Below, one piece after another: positions 16,561 to 23,130 of a stretch of 64,000 nt of DNA. This DNA is from an uncultured bacterium (GTDB lineage: Bacteria > Patescibacteriota > Minisyncoccia > Minisyncoccales > RBG-13-42-11). The translations under genes were made by a program, and so were the position numbers. Under the pieces are notes generated by a model that searched no databases, was not told the DNA's origin, and saw nothing but the letters and a program-made list of their open reading frames with translations. Each line of letters starts with the position of its first letter. Position 1 is the first letter of the stretch. The stretch is taken from contig CAWBPO010000001.1 of the NCBI GenBank assembly GCA_963790795.1, positions 38,675 through 102,674 on the forward strand, read 5' to 3'.

Positions 16561-16583
16561 TATTGAGGACTCTCCTCAACAGC
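16561..16583. repeat. REP-like hairpin, family A (tTGAGGA-ctc-TCCTCAAcag)
   Basis: inverted repeat ttgagga/tcctcaa in intergenic region upstream of 14178..16514. Confidence 0.6.
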
Positions 16584-16595
16584 TTTATAATAGCT

Positions 16596-16985
16596 TTAAA
16601 TTATGTTTTCGTAATGGTTTAAACGTTCCATAGTATTATTATACCTTAAAACTACGCATACTGCATCCACTCGATAAGGTCCTTGCCATTTCTTCCACGT
16701 CGCATAAGCCCTCGCATTACCCCAAAGCTTTCTCAATTTTTTGTTATTAATAGTGTCTTCCGGCGTGCCGAAATTCTCTCCCTTCTTCGTCCTCACCTCC
16801 ACAAAGACCATTTCATTTCCTTTTTTAGCGACTAAATCAATTTCCGCATATTTTGTTTTGTAATTTTGCTCAATTATTTTATATCCTTTTTTCTCCAAAT
16901 ACTCCTTTGCAATTTCTTCTCCTATTTTCCCTGTCTCCAAATGTGCCTGTTGAGGTTCGTCCTCAACAGGCCTAAATTGATTCAT
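16596..16985 (-). CDS. yraN: YraN/UPF0102 family endonuclease
   Basis: GEEIAKEYLEKKGYKIIEQNYKTKYAEIDLVAKKGNEMVFVEVRTKK (PD-(D/E)xK-like UPF0102 pattern); N-terminal 20 codons read through a REP-like hairpin. Confidence 0.7.
   Translation of the reverse strand: MNQFRPVEDEPQQAHLETGKIGEEIAKEYLEKKGYKIIEQNYKTKYAEIDLVAKKGNEMVFVEVRTKKGENFGTPEDTINNKKLRKLWGNARAYATWKKWQGPYRVDAVCVVLRYNNTMERLNHYENII
16947..16969. repeat. REP-like hairpin, family A (CTGTTGAGG-ttcgt-CCTCAACAG)
   Basis: perfect 9-bp stem; at comM/yraN junction. Confidence 0.65.
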
Positions 16986-18507
16986 ATATTTTTGGCCGGT
17001 ACTGCAAGGTTTCGGCCATATGGGAAACAGTTATTTCCGATGCTCCCTCCAAATCAGCGATAGTGCGGGCGACTTTAATCATTTTCATATAAGACCTTGC
17101 GGATAATTGAAATTTCATACTCGCTTGCTTTAAAAGTTGCTCCACTTCCTTTATCAGTTTGCAGTATTTTTTAATGTGGCTGTTTTTCATCTGGGCGTTT
17201 GATTGGATAGGTTCTTCCTTAAAACGCTTTTCCTGTCTTTCCCTTGCTAAGATTACTCTTTTTCTGATTGTCTCCGACGATTCCAAGAATTCCGAGGCTT
17301 TTTGATTTTCTGAAAATTCTTCCACATCGACCGGCTGAACGGTAATATGCAAGTCAATTCTGTCCAAGATGGGACCAGAAATCCGCTTTTGATATTTTCT
17401 TATTTGGCGGGGAGTACAAACGCAATTTTTCTTCGGATGATTCAAATAACCGCAAGGACAGGGATTGGCAGAAGCCACAAGCATAAAATCCGCAGGATAT
17501 CTTACTATTTCTTTACTTCTTGAAATAGTAAGATAGCCTTCCTCCAGGGGCTGACGCATTGCCTCCATGACTTGCCTTGGAAACTCATTAAATTCATCGA
17601 GAAAGAGAACTCCTCTGTGAGCCAAACTTATTTCGCCGGGGTGCGGTCTTGTACCACCGCCGATTAGTCCTACTGGAGAAGCTGTGTGGTGCGGCACTCT
17701 GAATTGTCGATAAGTTATTACAGAGCCTCCTGGAGGAATATTGCCTGCTACAGAATATATTTTAGTTACTTCTAACGATTCTTCTTCGGTTAAAGGAGAC
17801 ATAATCCCCGGTAAAGCTCTGGCCAACATTGTTTTCCCGGAACCAGGACTTCCCACCATAATAATGTTATGGCCGCCGGCTGCAGCTATCTCTACTGCTC
17901 TCTTTGCTTGTTCTTGCCCTAAAATTTCTTTCATATCAAACTCTGCTGGAATAGGTAATCTGTCTTCAGGTTCTTTATAAACAGCAGGTTCAATCAATTT
18001 CCTTCCTAAAAAGTGCGAAATAAGTTGAAAAAGGTTTTCTACGGGGTATACTTTTATTCCTTTAATCACCGCTGCTTCGTTTGCTGAATCCTTGGGAACA
18101 AATAAATTTTTAAATCCTTTCTCTTTGGTAAAAAGCGCCAGTAGAAACGCTCCTTTTGTGTGCCTCAAAGAACCATCAAGTGATAATTCCCCGAAAAACA
18201 GAGATTCTTCAGGTATGTCAAATTGCAAAATGCTTCTCAAAATTCCCAAAGCAATCGGCAAATCGTAAAACGAACCTTCTTTTGGGATGTCGGCTGGAGC
18301 CAAATTGACGGTAATTTTCTTTGCCGGGAACTCAATACCCGAACTTAAAATTGCAGCCCTGACTCTCTCTTTGCTTTCATCCACCGCTTTGTCCGGTAAA
18401 CCGACAATCTCAAATCCAGGCAGGCCTCTGTTTGCCAAATTCACTTCAACATCCACTTTAATTGTTTCCAATCCCGAATTAGCGGCTGATGAAACCTTAA
18501 TTAACAT
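16972..18507 (-). CDS. comM: YifB/ComM family Mg-chelatase-like AAA+ ATPase
   Basis: N-terminal Lon-like domain, Walker A GSPGSGKT, C-terminal Mg_chelatase_C region. Confidence 0.85.
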   Translation of the reverse strand: MLIKVSSAANSGLETIKVDVEVNLANRGLPGFEIVGLPDKAVDESKERVRAAILSSGIEFPAKKITVNLAPADIPKEGSFYDLPIALGILRSILQFDIPEESLFFGELSLDGSLRHTKGAFLLALFTKEKGFKNLFVPKDSANEAAVIKGIKVYPVENLFQLISHFLGRKLIEPAVYKEPEDRLPIPAEFDMKEILGQEQAKRAVEIAAAGGHNIIMVGSPGSGKTMLARALPGIMSPLTEEESLEVTKIYSVAGNIPPGGSVITYRQFRVPHHTASPVGLIGGGTRPHPGEISLAHRGVLFLDEFNEFPRQVMEAMRQPLEEGYLTISRSKEIVRYPADFMLVASANPCPCGYLNHPKKNCVCTPRQIRKYQKRISGPILDRIDLHITVQPVDVEEFSENQKASEFLESSETIRKRVILARERQEKRFKEEPIQSNAQMKNSHIKKYCKLIKEVEQLLKQASMKFQLSARSYMKMIKVARTIADLEGASEITVSHMAETLQYRPKIYESI

Positions 18508-19417
18508 AATATTTATTGTCCTCTTGTTGGATAAAACCTTTCAATTGCATTAAAGACAGAGTGGTTCCAACTTTTGAAACTGAAATACCTAATATTCTGG
18601 CTAAAATATCTGCTTCTAATGGTTCTTTTTTTAAATGCTCAATAATTCTTCTTTCAATATCATCTTTTAACTGCCCATTAATCTGTTGAGGTCTAATCTG
18701 TTGAGGTCTAACCTCAACAGATTCTTTACTTGGTATAATTTTGTAAAAATTCAGAATATCCCTGGCTCCGGTCGCTACCTCAGCTCCTTCTTTAATAAGC
18801 TGTAACGTTCCTTTTGACACTTCGCTTGTGATAGGACCCGGCACGGCGAATATTTTCCTTCCGAATTTTTTGGCGAATTCTGCCGTAATCAGTGTTCCGC
18901 TGTTTAACCCCGCTTCTACAATTAAAACCGCTTTTGATAGCCCTGCCACTATCCTGTTTCTTTTGGGGTAAGTCCAGGTCGCTGGCGGAAATTTTCCCTC
19001 AAACTCGGAAATAATCAATCCTTTATTTTCCAGAATTTTATTGTAAAGCTCTTCTTGCTCTTCAGGATGTATTATATTTATTCCGCAAGGCATTACAGCT
19101 ATTGTCCTGCCACCTGCTTCTACTGTGGCCTTGTGAGCGGCTTCGTCTCCGCCATACATAAATCCGGAAACTATAGTCACGCCAGCCGCCGCGATTTCCG
19201 TTACCAATTGCTCTGTTATTTTCCTTCCGTAACTGGTCAAACGCCTTGAGCCGACCACTGATAAACAATTATCAAAAATCTTCCCATCCCAATCGCCCTT
19301 ATAATAAAGTTTTTCCGGCGCCTCCTTGCCGATTTTTCTTAACAATTCCGGATATCTTTTATCTTGTATATTTATTATATTTTCTTCTTTCATAGATTTG
19401 TTGAAGACCCTCCTCAA
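18497..19417 (-). CDS. dprA: DNA processing protein DprA (Rossmann + C-terminal wHTH), with an in-frame REP-hairpin insertion encoding VRPQQIRPQQINGQ
   Basis: GVTIVSGFMYGGDEAAHKATVEAGGRTIAVMPCGIN...; tandem hairpin element at 18683-18722 lies inside the linker. Confidence 0.85.
   Translation of the reverse strand: MRRVFNKSMKEENIINIQDKRYPELLRKIGKEAPEKLYYKGDWDGKIFDNCLSVVGSRRLTSYGRKITEQLVTEIAAAGVTIVSGFMYGGDEAAHKATVEAGGRTIAVMPCGINIIHPEEQEELYNKILENKGLIISEFEGKFPPATWTYPKRNRIVAGLSKAVLIVEAGLNSGTLITAEFAKKFGRKIFAVPGPITSEVSKGTLQLIKEGAEVATGARDILNFYKIIPSKESVEVRPQQIRPQQINGQLKDDIERRIIEHLKKEPLEADILARILGISVSKVGTTLSLMQLKGFIQQEDNKYYVN
18683..18722. repeat. REP-like hairpin, family A, 1.5 tandem copies (ctgttgaggtcta + atctgttgaggtctaacctcaacagat) inside dprA coding sequence
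   Basis: 10-bp stem ctgttgaggt/acctcaacag; in-frame with dprA. Confidence 0.65.
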
Positions 19418-19420
19418 CAG
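19398..19420. repeat. REP-like hairpin, family A (ttGTTGAAGA-ccc-TCCTCAACag), one mismatch
   Basis: between comF and dprA, overlapping dprA start. Confidence 0.55.
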
Positions 19421-19424
19421 TCAA

Positions 19425-20090
19425 TTAAACGGTGCGGGCGAGAGTAAAACCCCAAACTTTTTTTACTCCCGACCTTTTTAATACTCTGCAACATTCTTGC
19501 ATCGTCGCTCCGCTTGTCCAGACATCGTCTACTAACAAAACATTATTATGGCAATTTATTCCCTTTTTTCTATGGAAAGAATCTTTAACGTTAACCATTC
19601 TCTCTTCTTTGTTTAATTCGGTTTGAGATGGCGTATCTTTTATTTTTTCAAGCAAGGCTAATACTTCTCTACCAGTTATTTCCCCCACCTTTTTGGCAAT
19701 CAACTCCGCCTGATTAAATCCTCTTCGTTTTTCTTTTTTCTTGAACATCGGCACAAAAGTTATTGTCGTGTTTTCCGGAATATACGGCTCTCTTATCTCA
19801 AAAGCCATTTCAACAAGTTCATTTATCGCATCAAACATACTTTCGTATTTAATTTTAAAAATAATATTTTTAATCAATCCTTCATACTCCCACGCGCTAA
19901 CAACTTCTTCCAAGCCGCCCGCCATAAAAACAGTCGGGGCTTCGGAAAGAAATAAACCGCACTTTTCACAGATATATTTTCCCTCTTTTCCGCACGCTAC
20001 ACACATCCTGGGCGATAAAATATCTATTATTCCTTCTTTTATTTTATTTAATACCTCCTTCATCCCTTGTCGGTTGATCTTAGACTTCAA
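19425..20090 (-). CDS. comF: ComF-family protein (ComFC-like phosphoribosyltransferase with N-terminal Zn ribbon)
   Basis: CVACGKEGKYICEKCG Zn ribbon; C-terminal PRTase motif LLVDDVWTSGATM. Confidence 0.75.
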   Translation of the reverse strand: MKSKINRQGMKEVLNKIKEGIIDILSPRMCVACGKEGKYICEKCGLFLSEAPTVFMAGGLEEVVSAWEYEGLIKNIIFKIKYESMFDAINELVEMAFEIREPYIPENTTITFVPMFKKKEKRRGFNQAELIAKKVGEITGREVLALLEKIKDTPSQTELNKEERMVNVKDSFHRKKGINCHNNVLLVDDVWTSGATMQECCRVLKRSGVKKVWGFTLARTV

Positions 20091-20095
20091 CCGAT

Positions 20096-20848
20096 TTAAT
20101 TCTCCAGAGTTAATGTTCCTAATTTATCATCAAGATTCATTCTTACAAGGCATTGCTTAGCAAATTCTTTATATTCTTCCGGGCCGAAAAATAATTCTCC
20201 CAAAACATCTTTTTCAATAATTTGCGAATTTCTTTTTCCGGCATAATCAGCCAAACTGCAATATGGATATTGTACTGCCCATTCGTACGCTTTATCAAAA
20301 TTTTCTAACGCTTTTTGCAGCCCTTCCGGATACATTTCAAAAACATTTTTTACCTGAATATATACGCTTAAATATTTGAGATATATCTCTTCGTTTATTA
20401 TTTTTATTTTATAAGAACCCTGAAATAAACTTCCGACTTCCTGATATTTTGTATTAAAATAATTAGCCATTCCCGTACCCAATCTTCTCATAAATTTTGT
20501 TACGCCGCCTTCTTGAATTTCTTTCAAAAAAAGATGAAAGTGATTTTCTAAAAGGGTAAATGCTAAAATTTTTACCAGCGATTTGCGCTCAGGCCAATCT
20601 AACGGCCAATTGAACGATCGGTTGAAGTCTAAGATCAACCGACGATTAAGGTCGCGAAAAGGATTTATTGCTGTAAATTCGTCATTAAAGTAATACAGCA
20701 TTTCAAGGAAGTGCCATTTGTCTTTTTGATCTAGAACTATCGGCTGTTTCCTGTTGCCCCTGTTGTAAACGTGCGCAAATGAACCTGGTATAATTTTGTC
20801 TCTTTTCATCTTTAAGCTGTTTAAGTTTGTGTTGAGGAGAGTCCTCAA
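20096..20848 (-). CDS. tnpA: IS200/IS605-family Y1 (HUH) transposase-like protein / REP-associated tyrosine transposase-like
   Basis: FAHVYNRGNRKQPIV (YHV..RGN motif) and HUH motif ENHFHLFL; likely true start MKRDKIIPG (ATG ~20809); flanked by REP-like hairpins. Confidence 0.6.
   Translation of the reverse strand: MRTLLNTNLNSLKMKRDKIIPGSFAHVYNRGNRKQPIVLDQKDKWHFLEMLYYFNDEFTAINPFRDLNRRLILDFNRSFNWPLDWPERKSLVKILAFTLLENHFHLFLKEIQEGGVTKFMRRLGTGMANYFNTKYQEVGSLFQGSYKIKIINEEIYLKYLSVYIQVKNVFEMYPEGLQKALENFDKAYEWAVQYPYCSLADYAGKRNSQIIEKDVLGELFFGPEEYKEFAKQCLVRMNLDDKLGTLTLEN
20616..20654. repeat. family-B hairpin element, inverted copy inside tnpA coding sequence (atcggttgaagtctaagatcaaccgacg)
   Basis: reverse complement of the 20060-20097 element; stem tcggttga/tcaaccga. 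Confidence 0.6.
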
Positions 20849-20850
20849 CG
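20828..20850. repeat. REP-like hairpin, family A (gtGTTGAGGA-gag-TCCTCAACgg) in tnpA 5' leader
   Basis: 8-bp stem. Confidence 0.6.
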
Positions 20851-20865
20851 GATTCTCTCAGTCCT

Positions 20866-21504
20866 TCATATTTTTATTTTTTTGATTTCTTCTGTAAAAA
20901 AGGTTTCTATTTCTTTTTTAGTCACGCTTTCTTTCAAAAATTCAATTTCTACTTCTTCAATATCTTCAAGATAAACGAGTTGTTCCAAAAAAAGACGGGC
21001 ATTAAACTCATTGCCGTATTTTTTCCCAGAAATCTCTATTATTTCTTCAAGGGTAGCGTGTTTTTTTGAAACAATAAAAAAAAGGTCCGCGTAGTCCTTG
21101 AGTGAACCTCTTCTATTTATGGTGTAAGTCTTGGTCGCAGCAATTTCTTTAACGCTTAATAATCCGATCCCTTCGTAATCAACCAAATCAAATGTCAACG
21201 GAAAGGGATATTTTAAGAAAGTGGTTTTCAACCCATCAATAAAAACAGTAAGCTCATCTGGATTATTTACAGAAAGCGCTATTTTGTTGCCGTAAAAGAT
21301 CTTTTTGACTTTCGGAAATAAGTTCTTATCTATCTCTTCTCCTGAAAATAAATCAAAATCGACAGAAATGCGGTGGCCAATTTGCAAAGCCAAAGCGGTC
21401 CCGCCGGCAAGATAAAAATTATTAAAGTTTCTTAAAGCTGGTAATATCTCTCTAGCTTTTTCAGTTAGTACTTCTTGATGCATAATTGAATCTATTGATA
21501 TCAA
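20866..21504 (-). CDS. nucleotidyltransferase, AbiEii/AbiGii toxin-like (type IV TA / abortive-infection family)
   Basis: YLAGGTALALQIGHRISVDFDLF (GGTAL...R.S.D.D motif of DUF1814/AbiEii NTases). Confidence 0.5.
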   Translation of the reverse strand: MISIDSIMHQEVLTEKAREILPALRNFNNFYLAGGTALALQIGHRISVDFDLFSGEEIDKNLFPKVKKIFYGNKIALSVNNPDELTVFIDGLKTTFLKYPFPLTFDLVDYEGIGLLSVKEIAATKTYTINRRGSLKDYADLFFIVSKKHATLEEIIEISGKKYGNEFNARLFLEQLVYLEDIEEVEIEFLKESVTKKEIETFFTEEIKKIKI

Positions 21505-21757
21505 AAATAATTGAGGCCAAGCGGCGAGCCCCCGGTCTCATTTCGCTTGCTCTGGTTTTTGCCAAAACTTCGCGGACTGCTTCTTTGCCATAGTTTTGCT
21601 TAAGCCAACGCCAGTGTTTAAGGTCTCCGTAATTGATTACATTAATAATAACAGTTTTTTTGTTTTTCTCCGGATTTAACTTATCTAAATCGTATGACCA
21701 TAAAATTGGCTTAAAATAATCTGGCAATTTTTTATTCATATGTTTATATTTTACCAT
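21461..21757 (-). CDS. small basic protein, putative cognate partner/antitoxin of the AbiEii-like NTase
   Basis: 98 aa, overlaps downstream NTase gene by 44 nt (translational coupling); no family recognised. Confidence 0.3.
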   Translation of the reverse strand: MVKYKHMNKKLPDYFKPILWSYDLDKLNPEKNKKTVIINVINYGDLKHWRWLKQNYGKEAVREVLAKTRASEMRPGARRLASIIFDINRFNYASRSTN

Positions 21758-21837
21758 AAAATTACGGTATTTTCCACGCTGTTCATGTCTCTTTCATCCC
21801 TTGTCGGTTGAAGTTAGACTTCAACCGATTTCAACTA

Positions 21838-22938
21838 TTATTGTTCGAGTGGCTGGCATTCGCCAATGATTTCGCAGCCATTAGACATATCGCTGTCGCA
21901 ATCGGAAAAGCCATCAGCGCAAGTGAAATTGCAACTTCCCTCCTGGCAAGCGCCTGTGGCATTTTGAGCTGAACAAAGATTTCCTGTAGCGTCTTGTGAT
22001 TCTATTGGTTTTTCTTCGTCGGTACCGCAATTGTTTGAGTCAGTGCAGGTTCTAGTCTGGGTGAAATTCCCGCCACAGGCAACGGTTTCGGGTAAAGGCT
22101 CCCATCCAGTGTAAGACCAATCAGGGACGCAAGCTGGTGCTTCTGGCTCAGCATTACAACTTTCGTTGTACCAAAAACCTGCAGCAGTTTCACATTCAGC
22201 TTGGCTCGTACATAGATTCAAATGAGTTGCATCACAAACATCCTCGGCTGGTGGTGACGCTGTTTCACAAACACCACCTTCGTCTATTTGGCCATCGCAA
22301 TTATTGTCTATTCCATCGCAGATTTCATCGGCAGGAGTACAAGCTAAAGTTTCTGGTTCGGCATTACAGGTTTCGTTGTACCAATATCCGCTATTACTTT
22401 CACAATCAGTTTGAGTTAAACAAAGATTTAAATTATTGGCGTCGCATGATGGTTCTGGTGCTGGTGCTATTTCACATTCCCCTTTTGCCTTCACCCATTC
22501 ACCGTTTTCAATCCAGGTGCAATAGATTTCACCAGTGGCTTGATCACGCATCTCTAATTTATCAAGTTGAGCCACTTCGGCAATTAGTTTCTTCACTCCA
22601 ACAATTCCGTTTTCAATAAATAATCCCAACTTCTTCAAACTATTTTTAATTGTCAAGGTAAATTGGTCAAGAATTGTCGGTTGCTCATCTTCGGTAGAAA
22701 TAGCTTCTCCCTCGGTTGTGGTAAGCGAGCCGTCCTCGGCTAATGAGCCAAGGGACCAGTGAGGATTGATAAAGACTAAAATTTTACCGGTTTCGTTTTC
22801 AATGGGCTGGCAAGTTTCAATTTCTTCAGTTTCACCCGTCTCCTCGTTTTTAACAGACTCTGTTTCGCATTGAGTCTTGGTATTGTTAAACGACTCCAAA
22901 GCAATTCCAATTACTCTTCCTGCTTCTGTCGATTTCAT
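21838..22938 (-). CDS. C-terminal segment of giant fibre/adhesin protein: end of tail-fibre-type C-terminal domain plus Cys-rich repeats with CDGIDNNCDG metal-binding-like motif
   Basis: Begins mid-domain (SQPGVAMKSTEAGRVIGIALESF); upstream parts of same domain lie in two other frames (22945-23373); repeated LNLC.SQ.EC...G.WYNE.CNAEPE modules. Confidence 0.55.
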   Translation of the reverse strand: MKSTEAGRVIGIALESFNNTKTQCETESVKNEETGETEEIETCQPIENETGKILVFINPHWSLGSLAEDGSLTTTEGEAISTEDEQPTILDQFTLTIKNSLKKLGLFIENGIVGVKKLIAEVAQLDKLEMRDQATGEIYCTWIENGEWVKAKGECEIAPAPEPSCDANNLNLCLTQTDCESNSGYWYNETCNAEPETLACTPADEICDGIDNNCDGQIDEGGVCETASPPAEDVCDATHLNLCTSQAECETAAGFWYNESCNAEPEAPACVPDWSYTGWEPLPETVACGGNFTQTRTCTDSNNCGTDEEKPIESQDATGNLCSAQNATGACQEGSCNFTCADGFSDCDSDMSNGCEIIGECQPLEQ

Positions 22939-23130
22939 TGCCACTCCTGGTTGAGAAAAGTTAAAACATCGCCAACCTGAATTGGCCCATTTTCGGTTGA
23001 CACTTTAACTGGTACCCGACCGCTTAAAGTAACTGGTACCTGAATTTCATTTAAAAATTGAGATTTATCCGTTTTAAATCCTCCCAGAAGAACGGCTGGC
23101 TCGGTGGAAATAACACGAGAAGTTTTGAAT

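Follow-up and report, generated by a model that had tools for sequence, protein, structure and literature searches.

The Y1/HUH gene and the palindromes of the window

We examined a RAYT-like gene for a Y1/HUH protein, here called tnpA (RAYT, REP-associated tyrosine transposase; REP, repetitive extragenic palindrome), and the short palindromes around it in a 64-kb stretch of DNA from an uncultured patescibacterium. This whole stretch is referred to as the window, its numbering is used for all coordinates, and L-numbers denote loci of relatives. All genes between 16.5 and 22 kb lie on the minus strand, as do the features described here unless noted. An earlier reading, made from the letters and without database searches (the sequence-only reading), had taken tnpA and an AbiEii-like toxin-antitoxin (TA) pair upstream of it for an IS200/IS605-like unit with hairpin ends. 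The transposase-like gene was borne out by Pfam, with Y1_Tnp (PF01797) matching at 31.4 bits (cut-off 23) and covering only residues 90–165 of the 250-aa open reading frame (ORF; 20096–20848). The real start is the ATG at 20809, which corrects the gene to 20096–20809 and the protein to 237 aa. The HUH motif is NHFH (H90, H92) and conserved tyrosines lie in YLSVYIQVKN (Y146, Y150); in an alignment of 22 sequences H92, Y146 and Y150 were invariant and H90 nearly so, and the catalytic tyrosine is presumably among the conserved ones.

The AF2 model of the protein (pLDDT 81.6, pTM 0.83) had as its best PDB match in Foldseek 4er8_A, "REP associated tyrosine transposase bound to a REP hairpin" from E. 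coli (E 3.4e-4), followed by the IS608, ISDra2 and IS200 transposases, with 4er8, 2a6m and 2xqc all at probability 1.00. It is only this fold comparison that ties the Y1 family to TnpA-REP. We found 418 homologues at E ≤ 1e-3, and the best 120 of them, 56–100% identical and nearly all 225–260 aa long, came from Patescibacteria and Omnitrophota metagenomes. One homologue (P0089, 63% identical) is named "RayT" in the JGI annotation, which is a label and not a test.

tnpA stands at the head of a run of competence genes. The sequence-only reading had placed comF next to the unit with its stop at 19425, and this was confirmed by TIGR00201 and Pribosyltran (19425–20063; 212 aa from the ATG at 20063, within ORF 19425–20090). 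Next come dprA (18497–19393), comM (16972–18507, a Mg-chelatase-like AAA+ helicase, assigned from its ORF and the Pfam families of orthologues) and yraN (16596–16985, UPF0102, 129 aa), and relatives have the same gene order of a tnpA-like gene, comF, dprA, comM and yraN. Synteny was sampled in 78 loci of species-representative genomes, with Y1 identity falling from 78% to 55%, and L093 (89%) is the closest relative with context. Over the range from 89% to 55% Y1 identity tnpA is followed by (comF-)dprA-comM, including in metagenome-assembled genomes (MAGs) labelled Omnitrophota, and comM is 69–97% identical in syntenic loci. The order in L093 is the upstream fibre gene, two hairpins, tnpA with an internal hairpin, a further hairpin, comF and dprA. 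MAGs labelled Omnitrophota or "Planctomycetia" (L017–L020, L024) have the tnpA-dprA-comM block in common with Patescibacteria, with ComM ~70% and DprA ~55% identical; this sharing across phyla may reflect transfer of the whole block or mislabelled bins.

Eight palindromes of one type lie in the window, at 16563, 16945, 18695, 19400, 20070, 20618, 20831 and 21804, all within 5.4 kb of the 64 kb. The 19-nt core GTTGA-N9-TCAAC occurs seven times, with one variant, all within 16.5–21.9 kb, and the better-paired subset has four members observed against 0.1 expected in shuffles. A scan of the window's other 58.6 kb for perfect hairpins and GTTGA-N9-TCAAC found none of the same type, and the 8-mer TGTTGAGG has eight copies inside the operon and none outside it in the window. 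All eight fold as single-stranded DNA (ssDNA) hairpins, at −4.5 to −13.5 kcal/mol.

Hairpin A (20831–20849, GTTGAGGACTCTCCTCAAC in gene sense) lies at −40 to −22 from the tnpA ATG, the canonical upstream position of the family, and is of another variant than hairpins B, D and I. Hairpin I (20618–20642) is in frame within the Y1 gene (nt +167 to +191, residues ~57–64, RLILDFNR) and repeats hairpin D exactly in inverted orientation; its peptide forms the lowest-confidence loop of the AF2 model (residues 58–62). Hairpin D (palindrome 20070–20094; 20055–20098 with its flank) fills the tnpA–comF spacer and runs into the comF ribosome-binding site (RBS) and the ATG at 20063. Hairpin B (palindrome 21804–21828, 11-bp stem; 21787–21831 with its flank) directly follows the stop codon of the upstream gene, which encodes a Cys-rich protein.

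Copies B and D are the 40-bp element that the sequence-only reading had placed at two sites in the same orientation. The copies are there, at 20060–20097 and 21794–21831 of the plus strand, so that the second ends at 21831 and not 21834; they are identical at 36 of 38 nt, the pattern given for the repeat matches exactly at both sites with none expected in shuffles, and similarity stretches to 50 nt at 88% (20048–20097 and 21782–21831). The inverted copy claimed inside tnpA also holds, with 20617–20643 complementary to 20069–20095 at 27 of 27 positions and encoding RRLILDFNR in the frame of the Y1 gene. These three copies fold as ssDNA hairpins at −7.5 to −11.4 kcal/mol. Although the repeats are real, they are no unique pair of element ends but members of a family of eight palindromes. 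What B and D further have in common, CAAGGGATGAA(A/G)GAG, is the comF RBS and first three codons (MKE), followed in B by a stop; the flank common to both in the window is thus the duplicated comF start, and B duplicates the tnpA–comF junction. Outside the window's genome the copies share the palindrome alone, with unrelated flanks in L004, L013, L018 and L019. An exact scan of 185,579 species genomes with the 31-nt core of the repeat gave no matches: the element is specific to its lineage.

The remaining copies follow the operon downstream. An imperfect hairpin (19400–19418, GTTGAGGAGGGTCTTCAAC in gene sense) occupies the comF–dprA spacer, and the last of the cluster (16563–16579, TTGAGGAGAGTCCTCAA) lies 17 nt past the yraN stop. 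The copy in dprA (18695–18723, 13-bp stem) is in frame. It falls in the linker that precedes the C-terminal winged-helix domain and encodes VEVRPQQ, after which RPQQI is duplicated in tandem; hairpins are found at the matching relative position in L004, L006, L010, L011 and L099. The copy in yraN (16945–16971, 11-bp stem) is also in frame and encodes RPVEDEPQQ near the N-terminus of a protein that has 129 aa with this insert vs 119 aa in orthologues.

Cognate hairpins in related loci

That the hairpins are cognate partners of the Y1 gene, as the sequence-only reading implied, was upheld in about 40 loci with 43–89% Y1 identity, where the gene has its own palindrome at −20 to −130 from the ATG, internally at +160 to +190, and 0–90 nt past the stop. 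A hairpin was present at all three places in 32 of 43 loci, upstream in 42 of 44 and downstream in 40 of 43, a few of these being unrelated hairpins. The stems are 7–14 bp and the loops 3–5 nt long, forming a genome-specific palindrome of 19–27 nt. The three copies of one genome share their sequence and between genomes the sequence changes, with stems such as GTTGAGG/CCTCAAC, GTTTAGG/CCTAAAC, GGAGAGG/CCTCTCC, GTAGAAG/CTTCTAC and GTTGGTAT/ATACCAAC. Where divergent paralogues occur in one locus (L010, L036, L041, L043, L091), each has its own palindromes upstream, inside and downstream. Across 43 loci the density of cognate copies was 8.2/kb in the 150-nt flanks and 0.8/kb inside the gene, and 0.18, 0.067, 0.022 and 0/kb with growing distance. 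The hairpins cluster at the Y1 gene, and are not a widespread REP unrelated to tnpA.

To assess covariation, we aligned the internal coding regions of 31 genomes with MAFFT. In the internal 11-bp helix 84% of cells pair, vs 69.5% when shuffled and 30–44% in slid controls, and double-sided changes were seen in 11 of 11 helix pairs; judging from this alignment, the pairing of the internal hairpin is under selection. The frame of the internal copy is always TTG-ARG-nnn-GAC-YTC-AAY, giving L-K/R-x-D-F/L-N, so that the peptide is dictated by the nucleic-acid element. Between L018 and L019, which are collinear and 82% identical in DNA, every orthologous hairpin has changed from CGGTTGAGGCTTAGCCTCAACCG to CGGTTTAGGATTCGCCTAAACCG, a joint switch that amounts to concerted evolution of the copies.

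Comparison with REPtrons and other readings of the hairpins

We consider it likely that the locus is a REPtron-like system, in which a conserved, probably domesticated RAYT-type Y1/HUH ssDNA nuclease is kept with its own short palindromic hairpins. Most work on RAYT-REP systems has been on Proteobacteria and Cyanobacteria, and the cellular role of the nuclease is unsettled. A REPtron is a TnpA-REP (RAYT) gene with flanking REP hairpins, as in YafM of E. coli (PDB 4er8; Nunvar 2010, Ton-Hoang 2012, Messing 2012); a classification is given in PMC6006769. The REPtron-like variant here is one of Patescibacteria and Omnitrophota, with few and local hairpins. Our look through the literature on RAYTs or tyrosine transposases in candidate phyla, on IS200 with dprA, and on DUF6922 found no description of this arrangement.

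Several traits are those of a REPtron. The protein is of the Y1/HUH type with a predicted fold nearest 4er8, the gene is of low copy and vertically retained (one copy in the window and dprA-comM synteny from 89% to 55%), and its own palindromes bracket it, with a separate palindrome family for each paralogue and with protein and hairpin co-varying. The REPtrons of Quentin et al. 2018 (PMC6006769) include class-2 TnpA-Y1 proteins with a Y-x-x-x-NP motif and REPs with a GT[AG]G foot, among them "double-foot" REPs, which carry the tetranucleotide and its complement at both ends. Their subclass 2.4 (Bertels group 4) has in-frame REPs inside the tnpA-REP gene, between HuH and Y, and in unrelated genes (PMC6006769). 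By this description our locus resembles subclass 2.4 in its double-foot palindromes and in the in-frame copies in the Y1 gene and unrelated genes. It differs in that the internal copy has a fixed site upstream of HuH (residues ~57–64) across 43–89% identity, and in that the protein has 237 aa with the motifs FQ and YIQVKN. In a distant clade of the candidate phyla radiation (CPR; L051, L053, L054, L059), TCAACCCnnGGGGTTGA is found at −55, +380 and +585, with +380 falling between HuH and Y. The Y1 genes of L051, L053, L054, L059 and L060, from Microgenomates/Levybacteria-type MAGs, are shorter and 32–37% identical, with TCAACCC(n2-3)GGGGTTGA at −55/+380/+585, an arrangement that resembles the published subclass 2.4.

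A number of observations weigh against a REPtron-like system. The association of protein and hairpins comes from co-occurrence and co-variation alone. The NCBIfam RAYT equivalog NF047646 gave 15.7 bits vs a cut-off of 80, and searching PDB sequences with the profile of the family returned no significant match and no Y1 protein, so kinship to characterised RAYTs is remote. The tyrosine motif is YIQVKN and not Y-x-x-x-N-P, with a family consensus of YLSVYIQVKNVFE that has N at +5 and no P. The hairpin foot is mostly GTTG instead of GT[AG]G, with GTAG in L035, L038 and L050, GTGG in L031, and ATTG, GTCG and GCTG elsewhere. Classical REPs number tens to hundreds and lie scattered, whereas the hairpins here are few and lie at most 5 kb from the gene in the window, and the Y1 gene, unlike that of a REPtron, is conserved as the head of a comF-dprA-comM operon. 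The type A hairpin upstream of the window's Y1 gene differs from the type B copies inside and downstream of it. Finally, tnpA has been lost or truncated in near-identical strains (L096 and L099, described below), and so is dispensable in this population.

Even with these points, a REPtron-like system remains the reading we favour. The fold of the protein, and its co-occurrence and co-variation with the hairpins, suggest that it acts on them as ssDNA. If it works like E. coli TnpA-REP and IS608 TnpA, the protein would bind the hairpins in single-stranded DNA and would nick and rejoin beside them. Nicking and rejoining of this sort could seed and homogenise the local copies, and deletions, duplications and exchanges of cassettes could in turn have their break points at these copies. 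This would be a compact version of the system in bacteria with tiny genomes, with a handful of hairpins all beside the gene. The fixed in-frame site, the dozens of natural protein–hairpin co-variation pairs and the link to com genes that handle ssDNA make for a small, tractable system in which to ask how Y1 nucleases read hairpins and why hosts keep them.

The place of tnpA at the head of comF-dprA-comM-yraN, together with palindromes at fixed sites, junctions and linkers that change in concert, could also mean that the Y1 protein and hairpins are a working part of a natural-transformation module in Patescibacteria and Omnitrophota, and not a selfish passenger, though we regard this as unlikely. 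The enzyme could then read the hairpins on incoming or replicating ssDNA, and could either autoregulate the operon or process or mark transforming DNA.

We likewise think it improbable that the palindromes are primarily RNA- or operon-level signals, such as mRNA stabilisers, processing sites or translation modulators, on which the Y1 protein is inert or acts as a regulator only. Most copies do lie on the coding strand where one cistron of a single operon meets the next, the positions between tnpA and dprA, between dprA and comM, and after comM/yraN recur even in Omnitrophota, and hairpin D abuts the comF RBS. The loop orientation flips freely among genomes, as expected if the stem alone matters, and the stability of mRNA is known to be influenced by REPs in E. 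coli. However, the hairpins accompany the Y1 gene to loci without com genes and have paralogue-specific sequences, which a signal in the RNA of one operon would leave unexplained, and the in-frame copies in three coding regions resemble insertions at permissive loops. A T-run is missing behind all eight hairpins on the coding strand, the sole terminator-like call being on the antisense strand, and Rfam gave no match at E ≤ 1 over 18–23 kb. Intrinsic terminators were ruled out on the same missing T-runs. RNA-level and DNA-level roles of the hairpins are not mutually exclusive and may coexist.

The DUF6922-AbiEii cassette and rearrangements at the hairpins

Two genes lie between tnpA and hairpin B. 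The nucleotidyltransferase gene (20866–21483; 205 aa with a likely start at 21483, within ORF 20866–21504) encodes a putative toxin, and its AbiEii/DUF1814-like nature was substantiated by Pfam PF08843 (48.2 bits vs a cut-off of 22.5) and by the PADLOC AbiEii models (E 1e-8). The overlapping partner, a presumed antitoxin (21461–21739; 92 aa from the ATG at 21739, within ORF 21461–21757), was to be checked against AbiEi (COG5340) according to the sequence-only reading; Pfam gives only DUF6922 (PF21956, 55.8 bits) and PADLOC has no match for it. The pair is like AbiE, a type IV TA and abortive-infection system, in its AbiEii nucleotidyltransferase and in its small overlapping upstream partner gene with a promoter-like site of its own, and unlike AbiE in that the partner is DUF6922 and not AbiEi. 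The promoter-like site (21748–21776), TGGAAA-17-TGgTAAAAT, is conserved in the cassettes of L006, L089 and L091. AbiEii homologues number more than 4600, typically of 205 aa, and this short form is very common in Patescibacteria; one AbiEii fragment (P0128) is 99% identical to that of the window.

The 1.77-kb segment of TA pair and tnpA could be read as one mobile element, of the IS200/IS605 type as proposed before or integrated in Campbell fashion, whose left and right ends are the hairpins and in which the AbiEii pair stands in for TnpB. We find this very improbable. The direct repeats do bracket exactly these three genes, the exact 44–45-nt junction duplicate is what a single-crossover integration would leave, and the Y1 family is found in several genomic contexts and also as paralogues. 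Like IS200, IS608 and ISDra2, the locus has hairpins near both ends of the gene and probably Y1/HUH chemistry, these transposases being the second tier of Foldseek matches to the model. On the other hand, tnpA occupies the same position without the TA pair in L093 (89%), L002 (82%), L004 (78%) and L010–L012, and keeps its syntenic location over deep divergence (55–89% identity). The protein has 237 aa vs ~130–150 aa, the IS200 motif Y-x-x-x-Q is absent at Y143, Y146 and Y150, and there is no tnpB. In other genomes the flanks of the hairpins are not conserved, and no conserved cleavage or guide sequences stand beside them; a third hairpin (A) separates tnpA from the TA pair and holds the upstream position that is canonical for the family. 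Multiple identical copies are lacking: the window has one Y1 copy and no second copy of the unit, and a scan of IMG/VR gave no relatives of the Y1 gene.

The notion that the AbiEii pair replaces a TnpB cargo fails on the same comparisons. Cassettes 88–89% identical in amino acids occur without an adjacent Y1 gene in L088–L090 (at a retroelement) and in L091 and L092 (at a TPR gene), with a DUF6922 85–88% identical and paired with AbiEii throughout L088–L092. The homologous stretch of the cassettes begins at the −10 box (ATTTTATGGTAAAAT) and ends with the stop codon, leaving the hairpins outside. A DUF6922 gene lies within 10 kb of a Y1 gene in only 1 of the 78 genomic loci, and a conserved TA-tnpA partnership was ruled out on that count. 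The pair was not found at the syntenic site without tnpA; instead tnpA is there without the pair. On sequence comparison the DUF6922-AbiEii pair is an exchangeable cassette, separate from the Y1 unit and tied to the hairpins by position only. In the window it lies exactly between the hairpins at 21804 and 20831, and the matching two hairpins in L004 and L093 stand close together upstream of tnpA. The cassette was probably acquired separately and is lodged between two upstream hairpins, with B at its outer edge.

The cassette of L088–L090 (2601–5618) lies directly downstream of a pair resembling a diversity-generating retroelement (bAvd and reverse transcriptase), on the same contig as that genome's tnpA and ~16 kb from it, and is flanked by the only two GTTGAGG-class hairpins of that 10.6-kb locus. 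An operator/promoter-like sequence, TGGAAAATAYCGYAATTTTATGGTAAAAT (window 21748–21790; L006 5418–5448; L091 3440–3475), precedes DUF6922 genes that are only ~30% identical in protein, and the window combines that upstream region with the coding region of a different cassette type, which suggests cassette swapping at the promoter.

Three further loci, L096, L097 and L099, were recovered by a metagenome scan. L099 is 97.3% identical to the window in DNA from comM through hairpin D, with a ComF 99.5% identical in amino acids. Its D junction matches the window's B copy at 45 of 45 positions, which identifies B as a duplicate of the tnpA–comF junction (44–45 nt). Upstream of hairpin D identity drops to 88% (L099 2311–2574, window 20055–20789), so that hairpin D looks like a recombination break point, and a 463-nt deletion (window 20108–20570) takes out the HUH and Tyr motifs. 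L096, 83–94% identical to the window in DNA, has the order B, DUF6922, AbiEii minus ~80 aa of its core, hairpin A, "ATG TAA" and hairpin D. The Y1 ORF is gone exactly from start to stop (L096 1000–1049, "...TTAAAG ATG TAA ATCGGTTGAAG...") and both flanking hairpins are kept; no microhomology accounts for this junction. Unlike the variants of an IS200/IS605 element, those of L096 and L099 are deletions within the unit that spare the hairpins, and the one in L096 takes the tnpA ORF only.

L097 comes from a more distant organism. Here a single hairpin, identical at 25 of 25 positions, separates a surface-protein gene from comF, and tnpA and the TA pair are both missing (1391–2541). This arrangement would agree with a mobile element. 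Its ComF is 54% identical overall and the first ~70 nt of comF are ~90% identical, making the gene a mosaic. The duplicated junction in B and the solo hairpin of L097 favour a repeat-bounded rearrangement of some kind; B could have arisen by tandem duplication followed by loss, or through crossing-over at the junction. It is likely that the hairpins undergo some recombination, and the loci compared here present the hairpins as recurrent boundaries of deletion, duplication and allele exchange. Under a REPtron-like system, the 40-bp "ends" would be two hairpin copies, the upstream one being the 44–45-nt duplicate of the tnpA–comF junction. A "transposase" annotation in candidate-phyla genomes should not be taken as evidence of a mobile element, and short palindromes in such genomes can be break points that shuffle defence cassettes. 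We also considered the repeats as attachment (att) sites of an integrated island and rejected this, there being no integrase and the repeat being one of eight family members.

It is hardly conceivable that the palindromes are inverted DNA-uptake signal pairs in competence genes, like the DUS and USS (DNA uptake and uptake signal sequences) of Neisseria and Haemophilus, with the Y1 protein incidental: copies do cluster in the comF-dprA-comM operon, DUS often form inverted pairs near genome-maintenance genes, and the arm GGTTGAAG by itself is mildly enriched in the rest of the window (8 observed vs 1.5 expected), but the rest of the window holds no palindromic copy, the sequence differs between close relatives and the same architecture is found at Y1 paralogues far from com genes. 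A DNA-uptake sequence was rejected on this distribution.

A second, unrelated palindrome family, TTGAAGTCACAAATTGTGACTTCAA, recurs in Omnitrophota-like loci (L018–L020, L024 and L027; for example L018 13900–13924), where it lies downstream of comM and, in L027, upstream of the Y1 gene. Upstream of hairpin B, what the sequence-only reading had called a giant fibre gene ending at 21838 is an ORF of 368 aa (21838–22944), not evidently giant. It has Cys-rich repeats of ~70 aa (210 nt), and the upstream gene in relatives encodes a Laminin_G_3 protein of 1300–1600 aa.

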